Counted from the first letter of the stretch, positions 35,141 through 59,761 are shown. The stretch: 64,000 nt of DNA from Deltaproteobacteria bacterium (GCA_016182655.1 JACPGB010000017.1:1110-65109); one strand, 5' to 3'. Notes: a model not told the origin generated them from the letters alone. Numbers and translations are program-made.

Positions 35141-35404
35141 GTGGACAAGATAAGGATAGACCCGGACAAGTTCTATGGCGCTCTCAAGGGGAGCGGCGCC
35201 GAGGTAAGGCACCTTTTATGGCCGCTTGCCGACTTAAACCCCAGGGAGAGGTCCGTCTTTACGGAATACCATTACTGGAACACCCACATGAAAGTGATCG
35301 CTACGAGCCACAGAATCTCACTCGGGAGGGCATATGAGATACTCTACAGGGCAGAGGAGAAGGTCGCGTCTTCAAGGACACAGGAGGAGGAGAAGGACCT
35401 TTGA
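35141..35404 (+). CDS. Small protein with sigma-region-4-like HTH
   Basis: L..RERSVF..YH......K.IA....IS..RAY.IL.RA..K pattern. Confidence 0.6.
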   Translation: MDKIRIDPDKFYGALKGSGAEVRHLLWPLADLNPRERSVFTEYHYWNTHMKVIATSHRISLGRAYEILYRAEEKVASSRTQEEEKDL

Positions 35405-35405
35405 G

Positions 35406-35654
35406 GTGAAGGCTGAAAAAGCGGGCGACGGCAAGATGGGCTGGCTCGAGTACAAGACCATGAGGCAGTACCAGTCGATGGGCGACATGCTCGGGGAGAT
35501 GAAGGTGTACGGGTTCGGCGGAGGGGTCGAGAGCATGATAGAGAGAAGCGCTTTCTTGGCGGCTGAGAACGGCTATGGCTGGCTTACCGAGGACCCGCAG
35601 GACAATGAGATGCGGCACTTGCCGGATAGGGGACGGAGAGGCTTCAAGGATTAA
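35406..35654 (+). CDS. Hypothetical protein
   Basis: GTG start right after the upstream stop, GGAGG upstream, host-like codons. Confidence 0.55.
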   Translation: MKAEKAGDGKMGWLEYKTMRQYQSMGDMLGEMKVYGFGGGVESMIERSAFLAAENGYGWLTEDPQDNEMRHLPDRGRRGFKD

Positions 35655-35740
35655 AGAAACTTCGCCAGGGCACATAAGGGAGAGTGTCCGCTAGTCGCGT
35701 ATGCAGAAGCGGGAAGTTTAAAAACTGATTTTTTCGGTTG

Positions 35741-35771
35741 AAAGGCCGGGCGAAATGCCCGGCCTTTTTTA
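35741..35771 (+). terminator. Rho-independent terminator
   Basis: AAAGGCCGGGC-GAAAT-GCCCGGCCTTTTTT. Confidence 0.8.
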
Positions 35772-36149
35772 TTTTATCTAAAGGGTTTGATACCTCGCGG
35801 CTTGCCGCGTGATTTTAAATCGCCGCTCCCTTGAGAGGGAGGCGGGGTGGGGGTGAAGCCCTGCCGGGCGGGCAAAGTTCATATCCAACGATAGCAGAGT
35901 GTTCAGATTATTGTCGTCTCCGGATACTTTGGCCCTGGCCGAAGTCACCCTCCCCTCGATCCCCTCCCGCCCAGGGAGGGGAAGCATAAGGTGATACCCC
36001 GTAGGCTTGCTACGGGGTAGTTCATTTTCAGGTTCATGGGGCTTCAAGAATAAAAAAGCGGGTTTCTTCTTTCAAAATCGTGAGGATTGCGCCGCAGGGG
36101 TAGAAAAAAGACCACACTAAGTAAAATCACACCTGGAGGGGGAGCGGCG

Positions 36150-36323
36150 ATGGAGATGAGCCTTGGTACGAAGTCGGCGGATTTCGGAAAGTGGACGGGC
36201 GGCGGAAGGGGAAGACGGGTGCTTCTGAGAGAACCGGAGCGCTGTGCCGAGTGCAACAGGGTGTATATAAGCCTCTACCCCTTGAGGAGGTGCGAGGAGC
36301 ACGAAGGGCTGGACGAGGTCTAA
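36150..36323 (+). CDS. Small putative Zn-binding protein
   Basis: GGAGG RBS; CAEC...CEEH motif. Confidence 0.55.
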   Translation: MEMSLGTKSADFGKWTGGGRGRRVLLREPERCAECNRVYISLYPLRRCEEHEGLDEV

Positions 36324-36352
36324 GAGGGCGACAAAGACCGGGGGTCAAGGGA

Positions 36353-36790
36353 GTGGCTATAGACTGGAAGGCGGTCAGAAGGGGATTCGAAGCGGGCGAG
36401 ACGGCGATAAGGCTGGCAAAGGCGCACGGATGTCATGAGAGCACGATAAGAAGGCGCGCCAGGAAAGAGGGATGGGTAGCAGAAGACCCGAAGGGGCGGG
36501 ATGGCGAGGCAATACACGATGAGATACTCGTCGACCACAGGGACCTCTGGAAAGGCGTTAAGAAGAGGCTTGTAAGGGGCCTTAGCAACAACGACGCGAA
36601 GGTAGGGCTCGAGGAGCTTAAGGTCGCCAAAATAGCCGGAGAGGTGCTCTCCAGCGTTATCAGGGGAGAGCGCATGGCCTGGGGGCTTGAGGAAGGGCCG
36701 GGGACGACGGATGACGCAAAGGATATTGCCGCGGAGATGGCACGAGTTACGGTTCAACAGGGAGCAGGCGAGGCTCCTATCGGAGAATAA
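36353..36790 (+). CDS. Terminase small subunit-like protein
   Basis: N-terminal HTH (IDWKAVRRGFEAG...LAKAHG..ESTIRRRARKEGW) directly upstream of and overlapping TerL. Confidence 0.75.
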   Translation: MAIDWKAVRRGFEAGETAIRLAKAHGCHESTIRRRARKEGWVAEDPKGRDGEAIHDEILVDHRDLWKGVKKRLVRGLSNNDAKVGLEELKVAKIAGEVLSSVIRGERMAWGLEEGPGTTDDAKDIAAEMARVTVQQGAGEAPIGE

Positions 36791-37976
36791 GAGGTTTGCG
36801 GTAGTGCCGGCCGGGAGAAGGAGCGGGAAGACGGAGATAGCCAAGCGTAAGCTCGTCATGTCGCTCCCGATAAAAAAACCATGGAGCGACCCGAGGTACT
36901 TCGCGGCCGCGCCCACGAGGGACCAGGCAAAGAGGATATTCTGGAGGGACTTGAAGGCCCTCGCTCCTCCGGACTGGATAAAAAAAGTATACGAGACCGA
37001 CCTCTGCATCACGACCGTCTTCGGGAGCGAGCTCCGGGTAGTGGGGCTCGATAAGCCGCAGAGGATAGAAGGCACGCCCTGGGACGGCGGGGTCCTTGAC
37101 GAGTACGCGAACATGAGGACAGAGGCGTGGGCGGAAAACATCAGGCCCGCGCTCTCGGACAGAGGCGGCTGGTGCTGGTTCATAGGCGTGCCCGAAGGGC
37201 TCGATCATTATAAGGAACTCTATGACTATGCGAGGAGCGGCGCGGACGAGGATTGGGGGGCGTACTCCTGGCGATCATCCGAGATACTCCCGCCCGAAGA
37301 GGTAGAGGCGGCAAGGAGAGTGCTGGACCCGAGGACTTTCCGTCAGGAGTACGAGGCGAGTTTCGAGGGGGCCACAGGCAGGGTCTATTACGCATACAGG
37401 GCGGATGTCCACGAGGATGAGTCGATACAGATAGTCGAGCGCCTGCCCATATCCATATGCTGTGACTTCAACGTCGACCCGTGCATATGGGAGATAGCGC
37501 AGACGGACGGGAAAAGGGTCTGGGCAGCCGACGAGATAGTCTTCCGTGACACGAATACCGCCGAGATGGGGAGAGAGGCGTTTGCGAGGTACGGGGACCA
37601 CAAGGGCGGGGTCGTGATATACGGGGACGCGGCAGGCTCGGCCCGCTCGACAGCCGGAAAGAGCGATTACGCGATCCTCTTCGAGATGGGGTTCAGGACA
37701 CAGAGGCTGAAGCGAGCGAACCCGGCTGTAAAGGACAGAGTGAACGCCGTGAACGCGCTCTTAGGGAGCGCCGGGGGTGAAACGAGATTACGGCACCATC
37801 CGAGGTGCGCCGCGCTTCGAAAGGACTTCGAGACGATAGAATGGGCCGGTTCAAACGGGATGGATAAGACGAAAAAAGAGCTTACCCACGCGTCCGACGC
37901 CCTGGGGTACTTCATCGAGTACGAATTCCCCTTGAGGGTACTAAGGCCCGACCCGGCGTCAAGATTCTACAAATAA
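36711..37976 (+). CDS. Terminase large subunit
   Basis: AGRRSGKT Walker A, GVLDE Walker B, FRQEYEASF, DFN nuclease motif, HASDALGY. Confidence 0.95.
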   Translation: MTQRILPRRWHELRFNREQARLLSENKRFAVVPAGRRSGKTEIAKRKLVMSLPIKKPWSDPRYFAAAPTRDQAKRIFWRDLKALAPPDWIKKVYETDLCITTVFGSELRVVGLDKPQRIEGTPWDGGVLDEYANMRTEAWAENIRPALSDRGGWCWFIGVPEGLDHYKELYDYARSGADEDWGAYSWRSSEILPPEEVEAARRVLDPRTFRQEYEASFEGATGRVYYAYRADVHEDESIQIVERLPISICCDFNVDPCIWEIAQTDGKRVWAADEIVFRDTNTAEMGREAFARYGDHKGGVVIYGDAAGSARSTAGKSDYAILFEMGFRTQRLKRANPAVKDRVNAVNALLGSAGGETRLRHHPRCAALRKDFETIEWAGSNGMDKTKKELTHASDALGYFIEYEFPLRVLRPDPASRFYK

Positions 37977-37998: not shown

Positions 37999-39345
37999 AT
38001 GACGAGAGAAGAATTCGACAGGAAGCACCCGTATTATGAGGAGCTCGTCGACGAGTGGAGGTTCCATATACGCTCGTACTTCGGGGGGAGGATGTACAGG
38101 GAGGGGAATTATCTTTTGAAGCACCCCTTCGAGAGCGAGGCCAATTACGCGCGGAGGAAGGAGACGAGCTACTTCTACAACTACTGCGGCCCGATAGTAG
38201 ACACATTCGTCTCGCACCTCTTTAGAAATGACGCGAGGCGGGAGTTCGGGCCCTTGAGCGCCGACCAGCTCTTTGCCGCGTTCCTGAAGGACGCGGACCT
38301 TGATGGGAACACGTTCAGGCACTTCATGCGTGAGGCGCAGAGGTTCGCCTCGATCTACGGGAGGGTATCGATAATCGTTGATAAGCCGAGAGGCGGGACC
38401 ATTACAAGGGCAGAGGCAGAGGCCCTCGGCGTCAGGCCGTACGTGGCGCTCGTGACCCCTGAGAACCTTCTCGACTGGTCGTTCGGCAGGGACTCGACCG
38501 GCAGGATGGCGCTCGAGATGATAAAGGTGAGAGAGTCCCTGGGCGCGCACAGGGTGTGGACCAGGGAGGGTTGGGAGCTCTGGCAGGAGGGGAGCGACGG
38601 CGAGGTGTTTTTAACGGATTCCGGCGAACACGGGCTGGGTGAAGTGCCGGTTGTGAACCTTTATAACAAGCAGTCCGGGATAAGGATGGCCGGGGTCTCG
38701 GACTTAAACGACATAGCCGACATAAACAGGAACATCTACTACCTATGCTCGGACGCGAGAGAAATAATCGAGAACACGGCCTTCCCCATGCTCGCGATAC
38801 CGTACTCGCGGGGGGCCGACAGGGGAGACAAAGAGGTCGGCCCGCACAACATCCTCCAGTTCGACCCGGAGCTCCCTAATGGGAGGCCGTACTGGCTCGA
38901 GGCGCCGCACTCGTCCCTGACCGAGATAAGGGAGTGGGTGAGAAACGACATAGCCGAGATATACAGGATTGCTAGGATGGGAGGGGCGAGGGCGACTGAG
39001 GATTCAAGGCAGGCGAGGTCCGGCGCGGCGCTCGAAGTGGAGCAGAGGCAACTCCACTCGGCATTGAGCGAGAAGGCCGATAACCTCGAACAGGCGGAGA
39101 CGAGGGTCCTTGAGCTCTGGGCGAAGTGGGAGGGGAGGGCGTTCGAAGGGACGATAGACTACCCCGACGACTTCTCCGTCCGCGATCTCGAAAGCGACAT
39201 CGGCGCGGCAATAAGCGCGCAAACTGCGCGGGTAGACTCGGAAACATTCAAAAAAGAGCTTCAGAGGAAGATAGCGTTCGCGGTCCTGCCGAAGCTCGAC
39301 GAAGGCGTGAAGGCCCGCATAAACGAAGAGATAGCCGGTGCGTAA
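37999..39345 (+). CDS. Phage portal protein (SPP1 gp6-like)
   Basis: Position after TerL, 448 aa, NYCGPIVD, HGLGEVPVV, SGAAL motifs. Confidence 0.85.
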   Translation: MTREEFDRKHPYYEELVDEWRFHIRSYFGGRMYREGNYLLKHPFESEANYARRKETSYFYNYCGPIVDTFVSHLFRNDARREFGPLSADQLFAAFLKDADLDGNTFRHFMREAQRFASIYGRVSIIVDKPRGGTITRAEAEALGVRPYVALVTPENLLDWSFGRDSTGRMALEMIKVRESLGAHRVWTREGWELWQEGSDGEVFLTDSGEHGLGEVPVVNLYNKQSGIRMAGVSDLNDIADINRNIYYLCSDAREIIENTAFPMLAIPYSRGADRGDKEVGPHNILQFDPELPNGRPYWLEAPHSSLTEIREWVRNDIAEIYRIARMGGARATEDSRQARSGAALEVEQRQLHSALSEKADNLEQAETRVLELWAKWEGRAFEGTIDYPDDFSVRDLESDIGAAISAQTARVDSETFKKELQRKIAFAVLPKLDEGVKARINEEIAGA

Positions 39346-39577
39346 TCGCAATATGCGCGCGGATTTCGGGATGGACGCGGAGGCCCCTGACAAGATCGCA
39401 AGGCGCGTCCTTCTTGAGGCAAGGAATTCGATCATAGATGCCATGGGCGCGGGCGAATGGAACAGGCTTACGACCAGGGAGAAGGCATATGTCTGCCGCA
39501 AGGCGGCAAAATGTCTCCATGATATGGAGAGGGTTTTGGAGTTCATGTCGTACGAGACGGACGAACGCCGCCTGTAA
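39338..39577 (+). CDS. Hypothetical phage protein
   Basis: 79-aa ORF coupled to the portal stop. Confidence 0.55.
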   Translation: MRNRNMRADFGMDAEAPDKIARRVLLEARNSIIDAMGAGEWNRLTTREKAYVCRKAAKCLHDMERVLEFMSYETDERRL

Positions 39578-39637: not shown

Positions 39638-40291
39638 ATGCAGGTTGACGAACTTAAAACGGTATCAACGGACTCGAACGCCGGGGACGAGGGCAGGATC
39701 AGTTTTCAGCCGGAGCAACAGGCGAAGGTCCAGGCGCTCATAGACGAGGCGTACAGAAAGGCGTACGCCAAGGCCTCGAAGCGGCCGTCGTCGGAAGAGG
39801 TCGAGAGGCTGAAAACCGAGGTCGAAAGGCTGAAGGAAGATAAGAAGTCTGCGGTGCTCTTAAGATCGATTTCCCGGCACGGCGTCGTCGACGCCGAAGA
39901 GGTCGCCGAGCTCCTCAAAAGGCGCTTAAGGCTCGACGAGGGCGGCGAGGCCATCGTCACAAACGACTCGGGGGCGACGATGGTGAACAGCATGGGAGGG
40001 CCGATGTCCGTAGACGAGTTCGTCTCCGGCTGGCTCTCGGAGAGGCCGCACCACTTAAGGCCCGCCTCTACCGCCGGGGCCGGGTCGCAGGGCGCGAGGT
40101 TCTCGTTCGGCTCCCGGAGGCACAACCTCTCGGACCCGCTCTCCTGGAGGGAGATGCCGAGGGAAGACCTCGACAGGCTCTTGAAGGACGGGGTCTCCGT
40201 GCAGGGCTCGGCGGGGCAGAGTTACGGGTTCAGGGACATAAAGAACCCGTTCCTCGAGGCGAGGAAAAGGAAGTTCCAATCGGCGGTTTAA
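39638..40291 (+). CDS. Capsid scaffolding protein
   Basis: Coiled-coil, F..EQ...I motif, ..PHHL..AGAGSQG tail; directly before the capsid gene. Confidence 0.75.
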   Translation: MQVDELKTVSTDSNAGDEGRISFQPEQQAKVQALIDEAYRKAYAKASKRPSSEEVERLKTEVERLKEDKKSAVLLRSISRHGVVDAEEVAELLKRRLRLDEGGEAIVTNDSGATMVNSMGGPMSVDEFVSGWLSERPHHLRPASTAGAGSQGARFSFGSRRHNLSDPLSWREMPREDLDRLLKDGVSVQGSAGQSYGFRDIKNPFLEARKRKFQSAV

Positions 40292-40310: not shown

Positions 40311-41174
40311 ATGGCAAACGAAGTGACATCGGCAACGGGTTCCGCTGGGGAGCTCATAGCCGCGGAAATAGTATCGAGGCTTGTAATAGACGCGGCGTAC
40401 GCAGAGGCCGTGATGCCGCCGCTCGTAAGGGTCGCGGACATAAGCGCGGACGGGACCCTCTCAGTCGAGTTCCCGAAGTGGCCGCTTCTGTCGGCCTCGG
40501 ACCTGACCGAGGCGACAGACATGTCGAACACGGCGGTCAACACGGCCTCAGCCGTGGTCGTAGCGGACGAGGCCGGGATAATGATCACGGTAACGGACAT
40601 GCTCCTGAACGGCGCGGGGCTCGGCGGCCTTGAGCCGTTCGCGATCGAGCTCGGAAAGGCGCTGGCGAACAAGATAGACGCGGACCTTTTGTCGAGCGCG
40701 TCAAGCTTTACGAGTTCCGTGGGGACTTCCGGCGCGGATATGACGGAGGCGAATTTCTTATCCGCCATATACTCGCTCGAATTGGGGAACTCCAAGGGGC
40801 CGTTCGTGGCGGTGCTCCATCCGTACCAGGTGAGCAACTTGAGGTCCTCGATAGCCTCGACTACCGGCGCGGTATGGGGCGGGCCCACTGCTCCGGCGAG
40901 AGACATAGGGTCCATGGGCGCACTTTACGGCGTGGACGTCGTCCAGTCGACGAACTGCGCGTCAGTGAACGCCAACGCTGACAGGCAGGGTGTCATGATG
41001 CCGCTCGGCAATCAGTCCGGACTCGCTTATGTGCTGAAGACCGGAGCGAAGACCGAGTTCCAGAGGGACGCATCGTTGAGGGCGACCGAGATAGTAGTGA
41101 CCGCCATATACGGCCACGGGTGCGTGAACAGCGCGGCCAACGGCGGAGTGAAGATAATCACCAAGCACGAGTAA
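40311..41174 (+). CDS. Major capsid protein (HK97 fold)
   Basis: Strong RBS; FPKW..LTE, ITVTD, LGKALANKIDADL, VLHPYQ, G.LYGV.V motifs; followed by a stem-loop. Confidence 0.88.
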   Translation: MANEVTSATGSAGELIAAEIVSRLVIDAAYAEAVMPPLVRVADISADGTLSVEFPKWPLLSASDLTEATDMSNTAVNTASAVVVADEAGIMITVTDMLLNGAGLGGLEPFAIELGKALANKIDADLLSSASSFTSSVGTSGADMTEANFLSAIYSLELGNSKGPFVAVLHPYQVSNLRSSIASTTGAVWGGPTAPARDIGSMGALYGVDVVQSTNCASVNANADRQGVMMPLGNQSGLAYVLKTGAKTEFQRDASLRATEIVVTAIYGHGCVNSAANGGVKIITKHE

Positions 41175-41231: not shown

Positions 41232-41618
41232 ATGGCCATAACCATAGGTTCGTATATCAAACGGGGGTACATCCCGCTTGCAGTCAACAGGTACGCGGGT
41301 ATCGCCTGGCAGGGTGAGCCGCTCCATGAATTTTGGATGTGGAACAGGCAGTTCGTGGAGGACTCGGCAGGTTTAAGGATGATTCAGACCGTCAGGGTCA
41401 ATGACGTCAAAGAGGCGGCCGTAAGGTATTTCCGCGACGGGTGGGTGCCGATCAAGAGAATTGACGATACGCTTCTGAGAAGGATGGAGGCGGCTCTAAG
41501 GAAGTGCGGGGCTGTCAAGGGGGAGATGTACTCAGGGGAGTTCCTTAAGATGCCCGAGCCCCTGCCTGAGGAGTTTTTGAGCCCAGCATTGAAAAAGATG
41601 GCGGGAGGCCAGCGGTGA
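41232..41618 (+). CDS. Hypothetical phage protein
   Basis: 128-aa ORF within the operon. Confidence 0.6.
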   Translation: MAITIGSYIKRGYIPLAVNRYAGIAWQGEPLHEFWMWNRQFVEDSAGLRMIQTVRVNDVKEAAVRYFRDGWVPIKRIDDTLLRRMEAALRKCGAVKGEMYSGEFLKMPEPLPEEFLSPALKKMAGGQR

Positions 41619-41773
41619 GGGAGAGAAGGGCCGTTGAAAGGCTTATAGAGAGGATATACAAGGACCGTCTCAAAAAGACCGGGAGGCTTCCTTCGGGCAA
41701 GGAAACGAAAGAGATAGAGGCAAAGGCGAAGAAGGCGGCGATCGATACGGATAATAGGGGTAGCCGTAAATAA
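41615..41773 (+). CDS. Small basic hypothetical protein (52 aa, not in the ORF track)
   Basis: GGAGG RBS, GTG overlapping the upstream TGA: MRERRAVERLIERIYKDRLKKTGRLPSGKE... Confidence 0.6.
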   Translation: MRERRAVERLIERIYKDRLKKTGRLPSGKETKEIEAKAKKAAIDTDNRGSRK

Positions 41774-41775
41774 GG

Positions 41776-42003
41776 GTGATCATAATGCTCTGCAAAACAA
41801 CAGGCGGCGGCTCCATAGCCGTGCAGGAGATAGACGGCTCGCCGTCCATAACGGGCGTCAAGACGCTCAAGTTCAACAACGGCTCGGTGACCGATTTGGG
41901 CGGCGGCGCGGTGCAGGTGAAGATAAACGACAACTTTGACGGTGGAAATTTCGCGGACACGTACATCGCGTCTGCCGCCGATTGGGACGGAGGTAGTTTC
42001 TAA
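41776..42003 (+). CDS. Small virion-associated protein
   Basis: EIDGSPSITGVKTLKFNNGSVTD, ends DGGNF..DGGSF; coupled to the fibre gene. Confidence 0.65.
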   Translation: MIIMLCKTTGGGSIAVQEIDGSPSITGVKTLKFNNGSVTDLGGGAVQVKINDNFDGGNFADTYIASAADWDGGSF

Positions 42004-44198
42004 TGGCTCTATGGCAGGCTAAGAGAGGGACGAAGGCGCAACTTCCGAACCCGCTTCAGCAGGGCGAGTTCGGCTGGTGTACCGACACGAAGGAGCTTTA
42101 CCTCGGGACAGGCACCGCAAACGACAACCAGAGGGTCTACGGCGCGGCCATTTCTACCCCGTTCACTATCTATGTATGCACGACGGCATTGGGCGGAAGG
42201 CTTAAATCCGCAGGCGCGAACGGCCTTGCCATGAGGTCATCGCAAGCGACCTCGACCATTGCCAATAAGCTCGTCGATTCGGGGGCGTCGTTTGACTCGA
42301 CCTATCTAAACAAGACCGTCTACAACAAGACCGACGACACCTGGGCGAAGGTGACGACTGTGGTCTCTACGACACAGCTCACCCTCGATGCCGATATCAT
42401 GGCTTCGGGTGAAAGCTACGACATAGCGAACGCCCTATCGACCGTGGCGGAAGGCTTTGCCGAAGTCCCGAACCCGTTCTACGCCAACATCACGGTGCGC
42501 GTCTCCCCAGGCACGTTTGCCGAGTCCGTCGCCTTTGTCGGCAAACTCGCGGCAGGGAGCTTTGACAATATCCTCCAGGGCTCGACGACCGGGACTACTA
42601 CCATATCGAACGGGACTGCGAATGTCTCGCAGAAACTCACCGTTAACAATATCACATTCTCGGGCGGGAAGATAAACCTCAACCCCGGCGCGATACTTAC
42701 ATGGTCGAACTGTCCCCTTACGAATGTCCGCGTGAACGCATACAACACGGCGGACGCGACCTGGGACAACTGCGACATGACGGGGACCTCCAAGCTCTAT
42801 ACCTACATCGGCTCGCGGTCCCTCATCAAGAACTCGACCGTGACCGTCGGCAACGACCCCACGAACATCACGGCCGTCTCCTCGACTATCACGAGAGGGT
42901 ACACGCTCTATGTGGCCTTGAACTCGGGTCCTTTTTATGGCGGTAATGACGCCATGGCAGATGGCCTCCAGATAGCGGCTGGGACCGCTACTTCGACGAC
43001 GGCGAACAAGCTCATTGATTCCGCCGCCTCCTTTACATCCGACATGGTCGGGAAGACCGTCTATAACTCGACTGACGACACATGGACTTATATAACCGCA
43101 GTGGACTCAACGACTCAGCTCTCGCTCTATCAAAACATCATGGCCTCCGGGGAGGCGTATGTAATAGCCAACGCCTTTGTCACGGTGAACGCGGCATTAG
43201 CCGCAGTGCCAGGCACATTCAACTGCAATACGACCTTGAAAATCTCGGACGGTACTTTCACCGAGAATGTGGTCGTGCAGGGCAAGGCACCGGGCGGGCC
43301 TTATACGCTCACACTCGAGGGGACGCTCACGCTCCTTGATTCTCTCACGGCATCTTCCGGCGCACAGGGCTCAAGCGCGACTCAGGGGACGGTCGTAAGG
43401 AACTCTGGCACGTGGACGGCGAACCAGAGGGCTAATAAGCTTGTGACTATAACCTTGGGCGATAACAACGGACTCTCCAGAATAATCGACTCGAACGATA
43501 CGACGACCTTGACGATTGCGGGATGCTGGATAGCAACTGTGGGGACGTCGACTTTCAAAGTATTCGATTGGGGGACGGTGATAGACGGCTCTTCGACCGG
43601 CACGGGGATAAAGCTTGCCTCCGGACAGAGGGCGGTTGCGCTCAAGAAGCTCAAAATGACGAACTCGGCCGGGGCGTACCCGGATTATGAGTCGGTCTAC
43701 ATGGATACGGGTTCGCAGGCGGAGTTTCATGACTGCTGGTTCTATGTAGGGTCCGGCCCGATTTACGGGATATATCAGGAGCCCTACAGCAAATCGTTCA
43801 TATACAGGTGCTTCTTCGGAGATTCCAACGCCAGGGGCATCTTCTGCGTGACTGCGGCTTCCGACATCTGGCAGTCGAAGTTCTACAACGCCACGGCGGG
43901 CAACACCCATGTCGGGATAAGGTCTACGCAGTTAGGCAAGGTAATCGTCTCCAGGGGTACCATCATCGACAACTTCGACAATACTGTAGGCGGGGGGTGC
44001 TACGCCGACCAGAACAGTATCCTTGTCTTCTATACGGCCGCGGCCGACGGGTTCAGCATCGTGCGGAATTGCGGCACCTACGGCATAGCGGCAACCGAGG
44101 GGTCGAGGATAAAGTTCAACCAGTCCGCGACCTATGTGACCTATTCCGGCAACGGCACGAACACCTACGCCGACGCCTCATCGACAAAGGATTACTAA
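42003..44198 (+). CDS. Fibre/adhesin protein with Mtd-like N-terminus, internal duplication and beta-helix C-terminus
   Basis: KRGT...L..GEFGWCTDTKELYLG; duplicated ATST.ANKL.DS.ASF..KTVYN.TDDTW module. Confidence 0.75.
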   Translation: MALWQAKRGTKAQLPNPLQQGEFGWCTDTKELYLGTGTANDNQRVYGAAISTPFTIYVCTTALGGRLKSAGANGLAMRSSQATSTIANKLVDSGASFDSTYLNKTVYNKTDDTWAKVTTVVSTTQLTLDADIMASGESYDIANALSTVAEGFAEVPNPFYANITVRVSPGTFAESVAFVGKLAAGSFDNILQGSTTGTTTISNGTANVSQKLTVNNITFSGGKINLNPGAILTWSNCPLTNVRVNAYNTADATWDNCDMTGTSKLYTYIGSRSLIKNSTVTVGNDPTNITAVSSTITRGYTLYVALNSGPFYGGNDAMADGLQIAAGTATSTTANKLIDSAASFTSDMVGKTVYNSTDDTWTYITAVDSTTQLSLYQNIMASGEAYVIANAFVTVNAALAAVPGTFNCNTTLKISDGTFTENVVVQGKAPGGPYTLTLEGTLTLLDSLTASSGAQGSSATQGTVVRNSGTWTANQRANKLVTITLGDNNGLSRIIDSNDTTTLTIAGCWIATVGTSTFKVFDWGTVIDGSSTGTGIKLASGQRAVALKKLKMTNSAGAYPDYESVYMDTGSQAEFHDCWFYVGSGPIYGIYQEPYSKSFIYRCFFGDSNARGIFCVTAASDIWQSKFYNATAGNTHVGIRSTQLGKVIVSRGTIIDNFDNTVGGGCYADQNSILVFYTAAADGFSIVRNCGTYGIAATEGSRIKFNQSATYVTYSGNGTNTYADASSTKDY

Positions 44199-50948: not shown

Positions 50949-51014
50949 AGGACTTTTATTAAGAGGAGACAAAAAGGCGCAAACCTTTCATGTCATAAGA
51001 ACAGGAAGCCGAAT

Positions 51015-51785: not shown

Positions 51786-51788
51786 AAT

Positions 51789-51914
51789 ATGGGAGTGAAC
51801 GATGGCCAAGCGCTTCATTATAAACAAAGGTTACTGGACAGGATACTGGGGAAGTTTTTTGAGCTACACAGGTCGGCTGACCCCAAGCCGCAGAGGGCCG
51901 ATCAGGTAGATTAA
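51789..51914 (+). pseudogene. Orphan C-terminal fragment of an A-type lipoprotein
   Basis: DGQALHYKQRLLDRILGKFFELHR matches the A2 end DGWAFQYKERLLDKIKWKFFELHR. Confidence 0.8.
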
Positions 51915-51962
51915 GCCTTTCTGATCGTTAGGCAGGACCTTTAAACGATTTTGGAGGGTAAG

Positions 51963-52715: not shown

Positions 52716-52887
52716 GAATTCCTAAGGAGAGCCACCTGGCACAAGACACTGGATTCCCGCTTAAGGCACGCGGGAATGACGAAATAGTTTTGCGGATCAA
52801 TTCCTGAGTAGGATTATGTAAAGGTCTTTTTAAGAGGTGGAATAACAAGGCGCAAACCTTTCATGTCATAAGAACAGAAAGCCGAAT

Positions 52888-53640
52888 ATGAGAAAACTTA
52901 TATTATTATGCGCTGTTTTTTTGATCCTTATCTGCTCGTGCACATATATTCCGACTATTCCGACTCATAACTTCATGATAGGAGAGCGATATGCCGTTAT
53001 CATACCCGAGAAGGTCCATTTGCTAAAGCGGCCCTCGGCCAATGCAGAACCTTTCGAGGTGGAGAGGCCCGAAGAGTTTGTAATCGAAGGGGTGGAGTGC
53101 ACCATTAGGACTGAGAAAGGCGATTGTCCGTTAGATGCCAAAACCTCCAAAGACGTTTTCTACAGGATCAGGTTTGAAGGGGGAGAGGAGGCCTTTTTAA
53201 GAACTTTTTATATTTTCGGGCGGGGGACATCAGGCTATCTGCTCCCGCTCGGGCCAAGAAGGGAGCAGAACTGGAAAGGAGAGGATACCTTCGAGGTAAG
53301 GGCCGGTTTTGATGAGATGTGGGATATTGCGGTCAGGGCGGTCCATGACCTCGGTTATACGATAACCCAGATGAGAAAAGAGGATGGTTATCTATCGACC
53401 GATACCAGAGAAGAAGGCAACAGCAGAAGCCGCCTGGCCGTCTGGCTTTCGATGGACCGGTTTTACGCGAGGGTAGAGGTCGATGCCACATCGGAGTATC
53501 GAAGTCGGACAAAGGACAGGACGACCGGGCAGGAGCAAGTCTCTCCCTGGTACGAAGGCGGCAAGTCATATTACCAATATCAATTTATGGACAGGATACG
53601 GCAGAGGTTGTGGGCGTCTTATAAAGAGGCGAAGAAATAA
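52888..53640 (+). CDS. Lipoprotein B2
   Basis: N-terminus identical to B1; close paralogue. Confidence 0.8.
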   Translation: MRKLILLCAVFLILICSCTYIPTIPTHNFMIGERYAVIIPEKVHLLKRPSANAEPFEVERPEEFVIEGVECTIRTEKGDCPLDAKTSKDVFYRIRFEGGEEAFLRTFYIFGRGTSGYLLPLGPRREQNWKGEDTFEVRAGFDEMWDIAVRAVHDLGYTITQMRKEDGYLSTDTREEGNSRSRLAVWLSMDRFYARVEVDATSEYRSRTKDRTTGQEQVSPWYEGGKSYYQYQFMDRIRQRLWASYKEAKK

Positions 53641-53656
53641 AACTTCGGGGTGAACG

Positions 53657-54511
53657 ATGGCTTCATGGGCGAAGGTAAAAATATATTACGACACGCTCCT
53701 CGGGCAGAAGGGGGCGGCGCTTACGGCCTCGACTGAGGCCTCGGAGGGGGACTCTGTTGAGAACATAACAGGTATGACCGAGACTACGATGTGGAAGGCG
53801 GCGGACCTTACGGACCCGCACTATATAACGCTAGACACCGGGCTCGGGGCGGTCCGGTCGTCGGCGGACTACATCGCCATTTACGGACACAACCTCGGGA
53901 CTGCGAGCGCGGAGGTCACGCTACAATATTCGGAAGACGGGGTGAATTATACGGACGCTTTCCAGGCTACATGCGTAAGGTCGGACAAGGCCTTCCTGAA
54001 GGAGTTTACGAACCCCGGGGCGAAGAGGTACTGGAGGGTCAAGATAACCGGCCACGGGGTGGAGCCGTGTATTTCGATATGCGCGTGGGGGGTGGCGACA
54101 GAATTGGATTACGCGAGCTCAAGCTACGACCCCAATGAGGAGGAGGCCGTGGCCGAGGTGAATCTCAGCTACGGCGGGCATGTCGCGGGCATACATTCGA
54201 GGTACACGGAAAAGTCGATGTCCCTTAAGTTCGAGGACGTGGACGTGAGGCCCAGCGGGTACTTCGCCGACGGCGCGTACAGGGCCGACGGGGCGATCAC
54301 GGCAAAGGGGTCTGATACGGTGACCCTGTACGAAAAGGTAAGGCGCTGGTGGGACATATCCGGCATGAGGAACTTTTTTGTCGGGTGGGATACCGCCGGA
54401 AAACCGGCGGAGGTCTTCCTCATGAGGCCGGAGGGGAAGTTCAAGAACCCCTTAAAGGGCGGCGGGTGCTACAGGGACATTTCCATTAAACTCAAGGGGC
54501 GGAAGGAGTAG
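53657..54511 (+). CDS. Distal tail-like protein with discoidin/CBM-like domain
   Basis: Position after tape measure; IYGHNL, LQYS.DG, RYWRVKI motifs. Confidence 0.6.
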   Translation: MASWAKVKIYYDTLLGQKGAALTASTEASEGDSVENITGMTETTMWKAADLTDPHYITLDTGLGAVRSSADYIAIYGHNLGTASAEVTLQYSEDGVNYTDAFQATCVRSDKAFLKEFTNPGAKRYWRVKITGHGVEPCISICAWGVATELDYASSSYDPNEEEAVAEVNLSYGGHVAGIHSRYTEKSMSLKFEDVDVRPSGYFADGAYRADGAITAKGSDTVTLYEKVRRWWDISGMRNFFVGWDTAGKPAEVFLMRPEGKFKNPLKGGGCYRDISIKLKGRKE

Positions 54512-54514: not shown

Positions 54515-56170
54515 ATGGCGGACCAGAGGATACAGTACACAGAGGAGCTCGTAGGCGCGAACCACGCGACCAAGTCGGACACCATAAACAGGCTCTCGCT
54601 CGTAGAGCACAATAACGACGGGACCCACAAGAGTGCGAACATTTATTCGGACCTCGTCGCAAAGAGGCCCTGGGTGGATGTAAGGGCGTTCGGGGCAACC
54701 GGCGACGGGGCGACCGACGACACGGCGGCGATACAGGACGCGATAAACTACGCGGCCGCAAACGGCCTCAATGTATACGCGCCCGAGGGGCACTACAAGT
54801 TCACGAACCTCTACTTCCACTACCACGCGACAAGCAACCCCGGCTGGCCGCAGACCGCCGGGTTTGAGGGCAAGCTCGCCTTCTTCGGCGACGGCGCGGT
54901 ATCGGGATACAACTATGCGAACGACGTCTGGAAGCGGACGGTGCTGGAGTCGACCGACGCAACGGGCCCGGCTATCATGATAGACGGCTCCGGGGTGGGT
55001 GCGAGACTGTCGAACTTCAAGATATCGGGGATGTCGATAATCGCGAACAACACGACCTCGGTCTTCGACATCGACGTAGGCAACTACTACTTCATCCTCG
55101 AGGAGCTCTTCATAGGCCAGAAGGGGGCCGGAGGCGGGATACTCGCCGAGGGCATATACACGAACTTCTGGAGGGACGTGAGGATATACGGCGCGGGGAA
55201 GACTGTCTCCGGCTGTGGTCTTACCGTACGCTCCGTCGCCGGGCAGAACGGGGGCGGAAACAACATATTCATAAACGTCTCGACATATAACTTCGAGAGA
55301 GGCTGGGAGATCGGGCACGCCACATACGGCTCAGGGGAGATAATAACGACCGTCGATTGCATAGGGTGCGAGGCCTCGACGCACAAGACCTACGGCGTAC
55401 TCGTGGGGCACGGGGCCAAGAACTTCAACTGGATAGGGTCGTACATAGAGAAGATACAGGACGGGGCGAGCGGGGGCATAGGCATGCTGGTAAAGCACCG
55501 CGCACAGTGCACGCTCGTAAAGGGTTCCTGGTTCTCGGATAACGACATCGGCCTTCAGCTCGGGACGAACGACGCTGACGCGAACCAGAGGGCCTTCGAC
55601 ATGGCCGCAGTCGAAGGGTGCAACTTCCAGAACATCCTCGTCGACGGCGTGCGCAAATACTCGGGCCTCTACAGCATAGGCGGGATAATAAGAGGGAACA
55701 AGTTCGGACAGAGCGCCTCGGCCCCGGGGGCGACATCGGGCGTCTGGGCGGAGGACGCGGCCCACAGGGGATTATCGGTTGAGGACAACGAGTTCTCGAC
55801 GGGGCTTACTACCCCTATCGTCAACGCGCACAGGGTTAATGTGCTTAAGAACCAGAGCGCCAACCGGACCTCGGTAATAAAGATGAGCGACGTAGTGTCT
55901 TTTGCGGCGAACGACGCGACCCCGGACGTATCCGACGGGAGGGTATTCAAGACGGCGAACACGGCGACTACCGTGATCACTGCCCTGGACAACGGCATCG
56001 CCGGGCAGGAGGCGATAATCATCTTCGGGGACGCCAATACCACGGTGGACTTTACGGGAACTAACCTCAAGGGCAACGGCGGGACGGATTTTACGGCGTC
56101 CTTCGGGGACACCATGAGCGCCGTATTCGACGGGACTAACTGGTATTGCGCGGTAGCCAACAACACATAA
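54515..56170 (+). CDS. Tailspike, pectate-lyase-like beta-helix
   Basis: DVRAFGATGDGATDDTAAIQDAI, VYAPEGHY. Confidence 0.85.
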   Translation: MADQRIQYTEELVGANHATKSDTINRLSLVEHNNDGTHKSANIYSDLVAKRPWVDVRAFGATGDGATDDTAAIQDAINYAAANGLNVYAPEGHYKFTNLYFHYHATSNPGWPQTAGFEGKLAFFGDGAVSGYNYANDVWKRTVLESTDATGPAIMIDGSGVGARLSNFKISGMSIIANNTTSVFDIDVGNYYFILEELFIGQKGAGGGILAEGIYTNFWRDVRIYGAGKTVSGCGLTVRSVAGQNGGGNNIFINVSTYNFERGWEIGHATYGSGEIITTVDCIGCEASTHKTYGVLVGHGAKNFNWIGSYIEKIQDGASGGIGMLVKHRAQCTLVKGSWFSDNDIGLQLGTNDADANQRAFDMAAVEGCNFQNILVDGVRKYSGLYSIGGIIRGNKFGQSASAPGATSGVWAEDAAHRGLSVEDNEFSTGLTTPIVNAHRVNVLKNQSANRTSVIKMSDVVSFAANDATPDVSDGRVFKTANTATTVITALDNGIAGQEAIIIFGDANTTVDFTGTNLKGNGGTDFTASFGDTMSAVFDGTNWYCAVANNT

Positions 56171-56179: not shown

Positions 56180-57784
56180 ATGGGACTTACGGAGAGATAT
56201 CTCAAGGAACTGAAGGAAAACGTGAATGTCCCGAACGTAGTCCTCGAATTCGAGCTGGACTCGGGGATGAGGAAGTTCGGGTTTCACACTGGCGGGTTTT
56301 TCGATATCGTCCCGTGTCTCAAGTCCGTATCCTCGTTCCAATCCAAGCTCGACACGAAAAAGGGCTACACGACGAGGGGCGAGATAACGGCGGTGATCAC
56401 CGGGAGGGAGAACTTCCGGGGGCTTCTTAACGGCGAATACCTCAAAAACCGGAGGGTGACGAGGAAGGACGGCTTTGTCGCGGAGGGGTTCCGCTACTCG
56501 GATTACACGGCGACATATTCCGGGATAGTCTCGGACTGGTCGAGGAAGGGCGACGATCTCACGGTTACCATTTCAGACGACCTTATCGACGCCACAACGA
56601 AGATACCCGAGGAGAAAGAGGACAACACCCAGTACATAAGCTATCTCGGGATGAACCCGGCCGACATCATGGCGGACATGCTCGTAAACCGGCTCGGGGT
56701 CTCAGGCGCTTGCGTGGATACGGCAAAGTTCGCCTCGGAGCGCGACCTCTGGCTGAACGGCTGGAAGTTCTCGCGCGTCATTACCGAGCCCGAGGCCGCG
56801 AACGAGTACCTTAACGAGCTCCAGGCCGAGACGAATTCCTTCATAATACACGACGGGGAGAGGATATCGCTTAAGGTCTACGCGCCGCCGATGCCAGGAG
56901 AGACGGTCGAGGAGTGGACGGATAAAGAGATACTGGATGAGAGCTTCTCGCAGAAGAGCGGGTACAGGGACAATTTCTACAACAGGGTCGTCGTCTACTA
57001 CGACTACGACGAGTCCGGGAGCGGCGGGACAGAGAACTTCGAATCCGCCGTGATAGCGTTGGACGCGGCTTCGGAGGACTCGACCCAGTGGGACGAGTCC
57101 TCCACGAAAACTGTGAAGGCGAAGTGGATCAGGTCTTATACTTTCTCGCAGGCCTCGAACATCACGGGAGTGGTGGTGTATCACGCCTCAAAGTCCAACG
57201 GCGAGGGGAGCGGCACCCTCTCGTACAATAAGGCGGGAAATACCCTCCAATGGACTCCTCCTGGAGGCACGGCTGGGACAGCGGTCGAGGTCGCTGAGAG
57301 CGGAAGGTATGACGTAAGCGGCGCGGACGGCTCGATGCTTATAAGGGTAATAGTGGACGCCGGGGCGCTCCCTGCCTCTGACGCAACCGACTATATAGCG
57401 ATATCGCCCTTGAACGGTCCGGCGCTCGCTTCGTCTGTAGCGAATAAGCTCCTGAACTTCTACCGCGACCCGTCTTCGACGGTCTCCTTCGAGGTGGATA
57501 TCAACAACGGGACCTCGAACGGGCGGTTCATAAGGCCGGCGGACCTTAAGGAGATAACCACCGACGAGGCGTCCGACAAGGGTTTGTCGAGCTGGAAGCG
57601 GGAGCGCGTGATGATAACGTCCGTAAGGCCCGATATCGCGGCCGGCAAAGTGGCGGTCGAGGCGATGAGGGCGAAGATGATGCGTAACTACGGGTTCGTG
57701 GCGCAAGCGTCCACCGTCGATTTCGGGGCGGCCTCGAAGGAGACGCGCGCATACGGCTTCGTGGCAAGGTCACATATCTGGTAG
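56180..57784 (+). CDS. Baseplate hub/tail tip protein
   Basis: YSG.V...R, NPADIM.DML, FYNRVVVYY motifs; position. Confidence 0.7.
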   Translation: MGLTERYLKELKENVNVPNVVLEFELDSGMRKFGFHTGGFFDIVPCLKSVSSFQSKLDTKKGYTTRGEITAVITGRENFRGLLNGEYLKNRRVTRKDGFVAEGFRYSDYTATYSGIVSDWSRKGDDLTVTISDDLIDATTKIPEEKEDNTQYISYLGMNPADIMADMLVNRLGVSGACVDTAKFASERDLWLNGWKFSRVITEPEAANEYLNELQAETNSFIIHDGERISLKVYAPPMPGETVEEWTDKEILDESFSQKSGYRDNFYNRVVVYYDYDESGSGGTENFESAVIALDAASEDSTQWDESSTKTVKAKWIRSYTFSQASNITGVVVYHASKSNGEGSGTLSYNKAGNTLQWTPPGGTAGTAVEVAESGRYDVSGADGSMLIRVIVDAGALPASDATDYIAISPLNGPALASSVANKLLNFYRDPSSTVSFEVDINNGTSNGRFIRPADLKEITTDEASDKGLSSWKRERVMITSVRPDIAAGKVAVEAMRAKMMRNYGFVAQASTVDFGAASKETRAYGFVARSHIW

Positions 57785-57796
57785 GAGGAGGGGAAA

Positions 57797-58327
57797 ATGG
57801 CTTATCCGAGCAAGACCTTTACGACTATTTCCGATTCGGCGATCGACGCGGATAGCCCCATTGACGTCTCGCTCATGACGTCGTTTCGGGATAACGACAT
57901 ACATTTGAAGGAATGGCTCGGCCGCGATTATTCGGCAGAGCCGAATCACAGCCACGACGGCGTTAACAGCAAATCGATCTCAGGAGGAGAGACCCTCCTC
58001 ATGGACAGGGACGCAATGACGATCTCGCAGTCGTTCGTGACAGTCGATACCGTAATGCTTTACATACCCGCTGACCTGACCGCGCTCTCATACTGCGCGA
58101 GGACAAAGGTGGAGCTCGCTGGCCGCGCCGACATGAGGCTTAAGATCGGGGCGACGGACGGGACCACGGTTCAGGGGACGCCGGACTCGACGGTGTACGC
58201 CTGGTACGGCCCCGGAACGATAGACGTATCCGCCTTGAGCGGATGGCAGGCATTTGAGGTACAGCTATCGCATTCTGCCGGGAACTATAACGCGTACATC
58301 GACAAGGCCGTCGGCAGGATGACTTAG
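57797..58327 (+). CDS. Small tail fibre/tip protein
   Basis: IDADSPI...RDN...HSHDG motif. Confidence 0.6.
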   Translation: MAYPSKTFTTISDSAIDADSPIDVSLMTSFRDNDIHLKEWLGRDYSAEPNHSHDGVNSKSISGGETLLMDRDAMTISQSFVTVDTVMLYIPADLTALSYCARTKVELAGRADMRLKIGATDGTTVQGTPDSTVYAWYGPGTIDVSALSGWQAFEVQLSHSAGNYNAYIDKAVGRMT

Positions 58328-58338
58328 GGGAGGTCGGG

Positions 58339-58662
58339 ATGGAAGAAAGACTCATAAGGGTGGAAGAGGGGCTTAAAGCCGTTTCCGGGGACCTCTTCGA
58401 GATAAAGGAGGCGCTGAAAGACATCGCGGTCTCCCTTAAGACGCTTGCGGTACTCGAAGAGCGGCATAACGCCGTTACGGACTCGATAAAGCGGGCCTTC
58501 AAGCTCATAAGAAAAAACACCGAGCGGCTGGATTCGGTTGAGAAGGCCCTTCCGAGCCTCGTCATGGCCTCAGGGTGGGTCTTCAAGGCCGTTATCTATG
58601 TCATGGCGGTCCTCGGGCTTGGCGCAGTGGGGACCATAATAAGCGGCGTGCTAAAGGCCTAA
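58339..58662 (+). CDS. Coiled-coil protein with C-terminal TM (XhlA/holin-like)
   Basis: Heptad N-terminus, single C-terminal hydrophobic helix, precedes the endolysin. Confidence 0.6.
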   Translation: MEERLIRVEEGLKAVSGDLFEIKEALKDIAVSLKTLAVLEERHNAVTDSIKRAFKLIRKNTERLDSVEKALPSLVMASGWVFKAVIYVMAVLGLGAVGTIISGVLKA

Positions 58663-58672
58663 AGAGGGAGAG

Positions 58673-59101
58673 ATGCAGATAACCGAGAACTTCAGCCTCG
58701 AAGAGCTGACTAAAACATCGACGGGGCTTCCGAACCTGCCAGGCAAGGCGGAGACGGAAAAGCTCCTGCTGACCGCGGCATACCTGCTCGAGCCCGTCAG
58801 GAAAAGGTGGGGAAAGATAAGGGTTACAAGCGCGTTTCGCTCTGAAGCCGTTAACGCGCGCGTCGGCGGCTCATCAACGAGCCAGCACGTGAAAGGGGAG
58901 GCCGCCGACATCGTACCGGTCGACGCGGACCTGGACGAAGTCTTCGGGTGGATTGCGAAAGACGGGGGGATATGCTTCGGGCAGGCGATACGGGAGAAGA
59001 AGGGCGGCTCTGACTGGATACATTTGTCGCTCCCGAGGGTCGGAGGGCCGAACCAGCAGAGGCTCGTCTATGACGGCAAGGGGTATGCGCCGTATGTGTG
59101 A
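58673..59101 (+). CDS. Endolysin, peptidase M15A family
   Basis: NFSLEEL, SAFRS..VN..VGG...SQH..GEAAD, WIHLS. Confidence 0.9.
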   Translation: MQITENFSLEELTKTSTGLPNLPGKAETEKLLLTAAYLLEPVRKRWGKIRVTSAFRSEAVNARVGGSSTSQHVKGEAADIVPVDADLDEVFGWIAKDGGICFGQAIREKKGGSDWIHLSLPRVGGPNQQRLVYDGKGYAPYV

Positions 59102-59285
59102 CGGGGTGCGGTTATCGCCTGATGAAGCGGATAGGGGACGGTTCAATGGTGATAAGGCGGGGGGGAATGCCTTTTTACCCTCCCCTCAATCCCCTCCCAT
59201 CGAGGGAGGGGAAGTATTAGAAGATACCCGGCTTCTTGCGGCATGGTAGTTTATTTTTGCGGATGAAATCAAGGAGGCAGGTGAG

Positions 59286-59708
59286 ATGACGCCGGTCATA
59301 GGGGACCTGATAACTAATACAGTCGGCAAGGTCGTGGGGAAGCTTGCGGACAGGTATCTGCCTTCCACGATGGGCGAGGTCGAGAGGGCCGAGTTCCAAA
59401 AAGAGGCTGAGAGGCTCGCACTCGAGGAGTACAAGACAGCCGTACAGGATGTTGCTACGGCGAGGGAGCTTGCAGGAAAGGAGAGCGACGGCGCGCCTGG
59501 CTGGACGAAGGTGCTGACGGTTACTCACAGGCCGGCGTGGAGTTTCCTCGTGCTCGGGATATTCGCCTGGACCATAGCCGCGCCGTACGCGGGTTTTCCG
59601 GCCTTTCCGTTGACAGAGGTCCACAAGGAAGTCATGCAGACGGTCATCATATTTTATTTCGGCGGCAGGTCGATTGAGAAGGCGGCCGGGATTGTGTGGG
59701 GAAAATAA
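59286..59708 (+). CDS. 3TM holin (GTA_holin_3TM-like)
   Basis: RPAW..TM..TM FYFGGRSIEK signature. Confidence 0.75.
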   Translation: MTPVIGDLITNTVGKVVGKLADRYLPSTMGEVERAEFQKEAERLALEEYKTAVQDVATARELAGKESDGAPGWTKVLTVTHRPAWSFLVLGIFAWTIAAPYAGFPAFPLTEVHKEVMQTVIIFYFGGRSIEKAAGIVWGK

Positions 59709-59725
59709 CTTATAGAGGGTCATTG

Positions 59726-59761
59726 AAGGCAGGCGGGGCTCAAGTCCCGCCTGCCTTTTTT
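59726..59761 (+). terminator. Rho-independent terminator ending the phage-like operon
   Basis: AAGGCAGGCGGG-GCTCAAGT-CCCGCCTGCCTTTTTT. Confidence 0.88.

Follow-up and report, generated by a model that had tools for sequence, protein, structure and literature searches.

A siphovirus-derived gene cluster, most likely a gene transfer agent, inherited within one uncultured order of Thermodesulfobacteriota

Among the closest described relatives in kind of the locus reported here are the gene transfer agents (GTAs) of Alphaproteobacteria. RcGTA and CcGTA are encoded by siphovirus-like chromosomal clusters of ~15-17 kb in minimal form, which are without replication or integration genes and are inherited vertically at the level of an order. 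Vertical inheritance and purifying selection are both described for alphaproteobacterial GTAs in the accessible part of a recent study (PMC10883770), and the accessible part of another describes control of the Caulobacter GTA by GafY/GafZ, an activator and anti-terminator, together with a repeat terminator (10.1101/2023.11.12.565669). In the sections available of two reviews, GTAs are considered undersampled, with a handful of independent origins known, and Thermodesulfobacteriota are represented by a single reported GTA, Dd1 of Desulfovibrio desulfuricans (PMC9953437; PMC11841831). A section of the second also proposes a small terminase (TerS) without a DNA-binding domain as a GTA feature (PMC11841831). 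Here we describe a head, tail and lysis gene cluster at positions 35141-59708 of a 64,000-nucleotide stretch of DNA from a Deltaproteobacteria bacterium (JACPGB010000017.1:1110-65109), which we call the window and which belongs to a 2.9-Mb assembly of 60 contigs.

We interpret the cluster as a domesticated siphovirus, acquired by the ancestor shared by one uncultured Thermodesulfobacteriota order and since then inherited vertically and kept intact there by selection, most likely as a GTA; we hold this to be probable, with real room for doubt. The cluster resides on the chromosome and has ~30 genes, every credible one on the + strand, as are all window features given below. Its neighbours are ordinary core genes, namely prs, L25, pth, a Na+ pyrophosphatase gene (PPase) and ychF on the 5' side, and DUF2905 (59889-60095), lpxC, phoH and a gene for an HDIG protein on the 3' side. 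A preliminary description of the same DNA had proposed a one-strand particle and lysis locus of ~24.6 kb between ychF and DUF2905-lpxC, domesticated from a small siphovirus and GTA-like in nature. Gene content from PHROGs and Pfam bears out the locus, and the GTA-like interpretation gains support from the synteny, tree, substitution rates and phage comparison set out below, from which we infer gene transfer itself. The description also placed terminators at both edges. On the left, a hairpin with a T-run can be read by eye 3' of ychF (34852-34885), although the terminator scan did not list it; on the right, the site 5' of DUF2905-lpxC (59751-59770) is only weakly terminator-like.

Functions that a mobile phage would need are missing. 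Protein families were assigned with PHROGs and Pfam over the 31 open reading frames (ORFs) of the window's cluster, with several starts reset from relatives, and no ORF matched a family of integrases, repressors, excisionases, helicases, primases or replication initiators. No att-like repeat was found, the longest exact match between the flanks being 9 nt, a length equalled in 77 of 200 shuffles. No target tRNA adjoins the cluster; the window's sole tRNA (tRNA-Gln at 28094) lies 7 kb off behind core genes, and an Rfam scan of the window returned tRNA only. Tyrosine recombinases gave five matches in the genome and none on the window's contig, and the large terminase (TerL) is present in the genome as a single copy. 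The 31-ORF scans and the flank repeat test thus agree with the earlier statement that integrase, CI/Cro-type repressor, replication gene, att repeat and target tRNA are all absent. An intact temperate prophage was rejected, since neither an integrase nor att sites were found, nor a replication module or a repressor switch. In its lack of replication, integration, excision and lysogeny-control genes of its own the cluster resembles a GTA, and where other families have different upstream neighbours these are host genes.

The composition of the cluster is that of its host. GC content and GC content at third codon positions (GC3) are 0.586 and 0.772 in 16 cluster genes against 0.587 and 0.800 in 16 host ORFs of the window, of which eight were family-checked and eight were not, and this near equality confirms the host-like codon style noted before. 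An interspersed repeat of ~80 nt, with at least 41 matches genome-wide, was identified by repeat matching in two cluster spacers, one before TerS (35947-36028, equal to C23:37056-37137) and one between the endolysin and holin genes (59173-59257). Host-like GC and GC3 together with the settled host repeat point to long residence.

The distribution of the cluster follows one order. A portal profile was searched over 96 genomes of the class, 77 from the window's order and 19 from other orders, and matched 59 of the 77 (window included), from all eight families, and none of the 19. With the window set aside, and the families labelled f1 to f8, matches were found in 27/36 genomes of f1, 12/17 of f2, 12/15 of f8 and 3/3 of f7, and among the small families in 1/2 of f3 and 1/1 each of f4, f5 and f6. 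An even sample of the phylum (401 genomes) gave weak matches in four of the 390 genomes outside the order, the best at E 5e-82 as against 1e-240 or better inside, and the element therefore appears confined to its own order, the genes of Dd1 lying outside this comparison. There is one copy per genome in 55/59; of the four genomes with two matches, two owe the second match to a single gene that is split or incomplete. Portal identity is 89% within the genus, ~65-72% within families and 60-67% between families. The relatives are all metagenome-assembled genomes (MAGs), many from groundwater, titled 'Deltaproteobacteria bacterium' (e.g. GWB2_55_19) or 'Thermodesulfobacteriota bacterium', so the lineage was rightly, if loosely, called deltaproteobacterial-type.

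The place of the cluster on the chromosome is also conserved. The order prs-L25-pth-PPase-ychF, then g01-g02-TerS through to the holin gene, then DUF2905-lpxC-phoH is kept in five genomes of two families (G003, G019, G007, G012 and G035), and a sixth (G010) has the same gene order with no holin match to the window query. Among 61 regions compared, ychF lies 5' of the cluster in every f1 and f8 contig that reaches that far, and lpxC adjoins the cluster in f1, f8 and one f2 genome (G043, by a holin-lpxC link). The synteny from ychF through the module to lpxC that had been suggested as a check therefore holds in f1 and f8, with the lpxC side kept in that f2 genome. Upstream neighbours elsewhere include cobalamin genes (G030) and a GGDEF-EAL sensor gene (G043), which are host genes with no integrase among them. 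In the outgroup orders ychF was not seen adjoining lpxC, and no simple 'empty site' was found. The first two genes of the cluster, g01 and g02, accompany it always, in all families.

Vertical inheritance is equally plain in the tree. TerL, portal and major capsid protein (MCP) sequences from 58 genomes were combined, leaving out two genomes with no portal (G002 and G038) and a second copy in G059 that has too few columns. Family f1 (27/27, SH-aLRT 96) and family f8 each form a single group, as do all 11 genera with at least two members. Family labels change eight times on the tree (minimum 7), compared with a mean of 27.9 when labels are shuffled, and none of 200 shuffles was as low. Protein distances of the element track those of PPase and ychF (Mantel r = 0.94, slope 1.08; 0/2000 permutations as high) over the 120 pairs formed by the 16 genomes in which PPase, ychF, TerL, portal and MCP are all complete. 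The comparison of TerL and MCP trees with host taxonomy, proposed earlier as a check, thus shows the element following families and genera. Inheritance at a conserved locus is one of the features by which GTAs are recognised, and purifying selection on structural genes is another.

Rates of synonymous (dS) and non-synonymous (dN) substitution show such selection. Between the window and a congener, dS is 0.53-0.70 in element genes and 0.43-0.65 in flanking genes, and dN/dS is 0.06-0.14 in 16 element genes (among them TerL, portal, MCP, g15, g17, g18, g25 and g27-g31), compared with 0.06-0.10 in prs, PPase, ychF, lpxC and phoH. Across six species pairs, wherever dS is unsaturated, core genes of the element have dN/dS of 0.02-0.17 and flanks 0.03-0.13 (pth up to 0.22); by gene, the values are 0.02-0.09 for MCP, 0.04-0.11 for the portal, 0.07-0.13 for TerL, 0.07-0.17 for the tail tube and 0.07-0.13 for g15. 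Between genera dS is saturated. Values of dN/dS above 1 for g07, g16, g19 and g20 were artefacts of wrong starts and one spurious ORF and were excluded. The capsid protein is conserved to the same degree as ychF, and genes are open and full-length for the portal in 58/59 genomes, MCP in 49/49, the tube in 33/34 and g18 in 31/31. Structural genes described as intact in the window are therefore intact across genomes, under purifying rather than relaxed selection. Judged by its genes, the element shows every GTA characteristic that can be tested in sequence save the proposed TerS feature, for which the picture is mixed.

The head and packaging genes open the structural part of the cluster. TerS has an ORF that opens at 36191, with the conserved part running from ~36344-36353 to 36790 (start set by relatives) and a weak match to phrog_1206 (E 1e-8). 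The HTH-like (helix-turn-helix) N-terminus of the window's TerS matches positions 6-47 of that profile, and in f7, f8 and some f2 members alignment is limited to the C-terminal part. TerL (36687-37976) matches phrog_2 (E 6e-36), Terminase_6N/6C and, in the PDB, the TerL of P74-26. It is followed by the portal (37999-39345; phrog_145 E 2e-82, DUF4055), by g06, a small and poorly conserved ORF of 79 aa (39338-39577), and by the scaffolding protein (39638-40291; phrog_206, start corrected). The MCP (40311-41174; phrog_544 and phrog_267) is the best-conserved gene of the cluster, at 71-93% identity across the order. Three small genes, g09, g10 and g11 (41232-42003), have no family match in PHROGs or Pfam and occupy the head-completion or connector position, g09 and g10 being conserved. 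The conserved 295-aa g15 (45838-46725) is modelled as a beta-sandwich with helices (pLDDT 81.5), and a fold search gave Ig-like partial matches only (TM ~0.25), none convincing. The 142-aa g16 (46722-47150, start corrected) stands at the neck or tail-completion position, with no family match. As regards the structural gene list of the preliminary description, TerL, portal, scaffold, MCP, tube and lysis genes stand among the 31 ORFs, TerS stands weakly, the connectors are placed by position and conservation, and the tail chaperone is placed by position.

The tail appears to be of a short, non-contractile siphovirus type. The tail tube protein g17 (47169-48257; PF18906) is a fused double-domain protein. 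In Foldseek its model (pTM 0.75) matches, at E values of 2e-13 to 1e-8, tube proteins that are likewise double and fused, those of SH-Ab15497, P74-26 and T5 (pb6). The two-domain fold is the same, but sequence identity to these proteins is only 9-15%, and a search of the g17 sequence profile against PDB sequences found no relative. As the fold is that of siphovirus tubes, the call of a siphovirus-like particle stands, and with it the earlier 'small siphovirus' label. A podovirus like BPP-1, suspected from Mtd_N, DUF4055 and pelagiphage portal matches, was rejected, since the pelagiphage HTVC026P has a tape measure gene and g17 is a siphovirus tube. A tailocin was rejected too, with TerS, TerL, portal, scaffold and MCP present and conserved. 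The tail-chaperone position is held by the conserved 124-aa g18 and an ORF at 48925-49230 (together 48440-49230), with no family match; an overlapping 195-aa ORF (48867-49454) was discarded as spurious because it has stops in relatives. For the tape measure listed earlier there is one candidate, the 306-aa g20 (49211-50131), which follows the tube and chaperone genes, is coiled, Gly/Ala-rich and hydrophobic with poly-Ser segments, and draws a weak lead to tape-measure clusters from a protein-language-model Atlas. Tails measure ~1.5 Å per tape-measure residue, so that a short tail is implied if g20 is the tape measure.

The tail tip and lysis genes complete the cluster. The tail-tip protein g25 (53657-54511; Pfam) bears an F5/8 type C domain and is 45-93% identical across the order. 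The next gene, g26 (54515-56170; PHROGs and Pfam), encodes a tailspike or depolymerase of pectate-lyase fold, with a phage depolymerase C-terminal domain in addition; its N-terminal ~90 aa are conserved and the remainder is swapped among relatives. The 534-aa tail fibre or hub protein g27 (56180-57784; phrog_11439) is conserved at ~50-87% identity across the order, and g28, with a conserved N-terminus and variable remainder, precedes g29 (57797-58662 together). Lysis is represented by an M15 peptidase endolysin (58673-59101; phrog_894 E 1e-30, PF08291), which diverges fast and keeps its position, a divergent M15 enzyme lying at the same place in G012, and by a holin (59286-59708; phrog_3427 E 7e-6), the right boundary gene, which adjoins DUF2905-lpxC and is 55-91% identical within f1, f2 and f8.

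Set beside RcGTA and CcGTA, the element is unrelated to the alphaproteobacterial GTAs at the family level, as far as protein comparison can tell. NCBIfam gave no match above cut-off for 10 core proteins, and the one likeness of this sort is the holin, which weakly resembles PF11351 (GTA_holin_3TM) at 21.6 bits, below the 24.8 cut-off. The element differs in its portal of DUF4055/SPP1 type, its fused double tube, its lysis genes inside the cluster, a TerS that may keep its HTH, and its host phylum; it is also known from genes alone. A likeness is seen in regulation, where small dedicated regulators precede a terminator, as GafYZ does in the part of the CcGTA report available (10.1101/2023.11.12.565669).

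The control region lies at the left end. A promoter-like site in an AT-rich stretch between the ychF terminator and g01 reads TTGACT-16-TATAAT (34938-34965), a sigma-70-like sequence matching 11 of 12 consensus positions; it is identified by consensus match only. The first gene, g01 (35141-35404), encodes an 87-aa stand-alone protein resembling sigma-70 region 4, with an HTH, and is a candidate regulator; its match to Pfam Sigma70_r4 (E 0.002) falls below cut-off. Sixteen orthologs share 61-93% identity and do not vary in the HTH core; the look-alikes of g01 in the Atlas are short proteins of the Sigma70_r4 family, of which several are viral. The second, g02 (35406-35654), is a small conserved protein that matched nothing in Pfam-type family searches; its likely GTG start at 35406 was read from the sequence, in an ORF that opens at 35334. 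In a sequence scan, a strong intrinsic-terminator-like hairpin follows g02 (35740-35768), and a hairpin-rich spacer of several hundred bases then extends to TerS. A hairpin with a T-run occurs 3' of g02 in 43/49 relatives; the opposite strand shows one in 13, and ten dinucleotide shuffles gave 0-4/49 (mean 1.8). Insertion of a DEAD-box helicase gene and an opposite-strand ORF resembling a phage-tail lysozyme between g02 and TerS of G009 (L018 3710-7131) indicates that the two regulator genes form a unit separable from the late genes. By analogy with GafY/GafZ and the repeat terminator in Caulobacter, we propose that g01 and g02 act by activation or anti-termination.

In two close species pairs, dS in g01 and g02 is 0.10-0.20, compared with ~0.4-0.7 in neighbouring genes, and the reading frame of g02 has no stop where it runs over the 3' end of g01. 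Taken together, the low dS and the open frame suggest overlapping coding or constraint at the nucleotide level.

If the element is a GTA, g01 and g02, lying before a conserved terminator, would switch on a late operon of 16-25 kb in some cells. TerS and TerL would then package DNA into capsids by way of the portal, and a short non-contractile tail, made of the fused double tube and the ~300-aa tape measure candidate and bearing exchangeable spikes or fibres, would be joined to them. Holin and M15 endolysin would release the particles. With no excision or replication by the cluster, the host chromosome would be the DNA on offer for packaging.

Two variable slots carry cargo. Slot 1 (42003-45841), between the head-completion genes and g15, holds g12 (731 aa, with an Mtd_N N-terminus), a GDSL/SGNH esterase gene (g13) and g14; its content is replaced by other genes in the congener, is empty in G010 and G012, and is absent or replaced in many relatives. 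Slot 2 (50184-53640), after the tape measure candidate, holds four paralogous lipoprotein genes, g21-g24, recognised by lipobox alignment. They fall into two subtypes, each with the lipobox cysteine, and are of foreign composition (GC 0.46, GC3 0.56); relatives have one lipoprotein, none, or fragments. The Mtd_N fibre, the GDSL esterase and the four low-GC lipoprotein paralogs go beyond the genes listed in the preliminary description. From their sequence, the lipoproteins could be receptor-masking or exclusion proteins. The minimal form, in G010 and G012, measures ~16.8 kb from ychF to lpxC, and the cluster of the window reaches 24.6 kb because the two slots inflate it.

Lipoprotein copy number also differs between strains in public runs, e.g. 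in a contig that joins 51005 to 52879.

The alternative that fares best is a particle of the PBSX type. PBSX of Bacillus is a conserved chromosomal particle and lysis cluster without a replication module, and it has a contractile tail. A defective-phage particle of this kind would be filled with DNA and would serve in killing or rivalry among related strains, or in setting free DNA along with other cell contents, with no productive gene delivery. All of the evidence for domestication fits it equally well. The receptor-binding parts of the element (the C-terminus of g26, g28, and the slot of g12-g14) are swapped among relatives as would be expected under strain-level conflict, and producing cells or their kin could gain protection from the lipoproteins. 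Against this, PHROGs and Pfam searches found no toxin or bacteriocin domain in the cluster, and TerL, portal and capsid are so strongly selected that the packaging of DNA must itself matter, although PBSX packages DNA too. The tails differ, that of PBSX being contractile and the tube of the element being of siphovirus type, with no sheath family found among the cluster proteins in PHROGs or Pfam. Sequence alone does not separate killing or release from gene transfer, and we consider the PBSX-like explanation unlikely, if deserving of serious attention.

Comparison with phages bears on how the element arose and on whether it might still move. The best matches among deposited phages reach 45.6% identity for TerL and 37% for the portal, so that the close match to a complete temperate phage, given earlier as a ground for refutation, did not turn up in the collections searched (at most 46% identity). 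IMG/VR holds copies of the element itself and a 30-kb viral contig (L166; GC ~0.51) that is 58% identical to it in TerL, 48% in the portal, 63% in MCP and 41% in g15. This contig shares the head module, and differs in having early genes directly 5' of the terminase, for a replication initiator, a Holliday-junction resolvase and an Erf-like recombinase, and a TerS of another family, phrog_309; the early genes, TerS, TerL, portal, MCP and the g15 homolog together lie within 1-17895. The portal tree places it, with one partner, as the sister group of the element clade (SH-aLRT 94-99). It is probably a true phage relative, and its sister position and early genes are what would be expected if such a phage was captured once and the early region then lost. 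HTVC026P shares TerL (33%), portal (37%), MCP (34%) and an M15 lysin (36%) with the element, and differs in having its own DnaD-domain protein and HTH regulator, with the tail genes of the element all unshared. Genomes of the related phages are ~30-32 kb.

A helper-dependent or still mobile element, drawing its early functions in trans from the genome or from a phage of the L166 type and spreading horizontally, is a possibility that we rate as quite improbable. Related true phages do exist in metagenomes. One genome (G059) has a further contig on which portal and TerL occur again in divergent form, and five short sequences (L143, which is that second contig, and L160-L163 from IMG/VR) have portals 52-55% identical to that of the window. 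Within the element clade these five branch next to an f2 member that has a long branch; a second, divergent lineage, a derivative that became mobile again or an artefact of binning may account for them. Horizontal spread is hard to reconcile with a fixed place, with dS equal to that of the flanks, and with a tree that mirrors host families and genera, and neither an att repeat nor an integrase on the contig was found for an element present once in 55/59 genomes.

A second conserved element (L084-L090, L187 and L188; portals 32-35% identical) was considered and dropped, as two genomes of family f35 share only the portal and one ORF; the loci look like ordinary prophages from their gene content. 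Portal relatives of ~33% identity occur in other Thermodesulfobacteriota, family f35 included, and in MAGs titled 'Dadabacteria'.

Several observations weigh against a selected, vertically inherited GTA. The 18 of the 77 order genomes without a portal match include three f2 genomes that are 100% complete (G032, G036 and G039). Five of the 18 were inspected, and several of the other 13 are 61-90% complete. In one of the five (G002) the contig ends inside TerL; in the three complete f2 genomes a look via ychF was uninformative because f2 elements do not lie beside ychF; and the fifth (G038) contains a deletion remnant in which g01, g02, TerS, a 131-aa TerL fragment and ~2 kb of unassigned sequence are followed by holin and lpxC (L094 7930-12166). 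In a further genome (G034) the portal gene is split and g15 is interrupted by a stop. The complete f2 genomes, the remnant and the split portal mean that the element is dispensable in some lineages. Upstream synteny with ychF is lost in f2, f3, f4 and f7. Four lipoprotein genes in a tail module are unexpected for a GTA and could be phage-type exclusion functions. In family f1, TerS retains an N-terminal segment of HTH-like character, which aligns with the first positions of phrog_1206, and a head of ancestral size, as in phages of ~30-32 kb, could hold the whole 16-25 kb cluster, so that the classical inability of a GTA to package itself is no more than a possibility here. No public RNA runs were listed with cluster sequence. 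The hosts are all uncultured MAGs, and it is from genes that we infer that particles are formed, that they carry host DNA and bring it into other cells, and what g01 and g02 do.

Decay in G038, in the G034 portal and in g27 of G012 and G064 (where assembly error is possible) might suggest an inert prophage remnant whose loss is merely pending, an explanation we find barely credible given full-length core genes in eight families, dN/dS of 0.02-0.17 and a capsid conserved like ychF, and since neutral sequence would not outlast a divergence at which dS is saturated between genera.

For the GTA interpretation, no published GTA in this lineage was found in the literature searched (supplementary files excluded), and we rate the element, from its genes, as a newly recognised and independently domesticated GTA-like element. 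A bolder proposal is that an ancient siphovirus was independently domesticated into a GTA that became an order-wide trait in groundwater Thermodesulfobacteriota, with a conserved particle core, two swappable cargo slots (one for fibres or depolymerases, one for lipoproteins) and, before a conserved terminator, an anti-termination regulator pair convergent with GafYZ. This would be the first GTA family to come purely from comparative genomics of MAGs, and likely a main route of gene exchange in these bacteria; we put the proposal forward tentatively, giving it slightly less than even confidence. The gain boundary is clear, since the element occurs in one order and its sister orders gave no match, and ~60 natural variants are already sequenced, with a surviving phage relative for comparison. 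The element is therefore a test case for the changes of domestication, namely early-module loss, TerS change, regulator capture and fibre-swap slots, and a well-delimited GTA candidate in a different phylum-level setting, to be targeted in the groundwater where its hosts occur.

Some minor observations concern the window and its strains. Further copies of the ~80-nt repeat lie at 30948-31016 and probably at ~48320-48355, and many metagenome contigs break at positions of this repeat. A strain variant in public DNA runs is missing 176 bp at 59105-59282, in the lysin-holin spacer; strain variants were read from assembled contigs of four such runs. Far 5' of the cluster, at ~6000-8500, the window has a low GC content of 0.44-0.49, compared with ~0.58.

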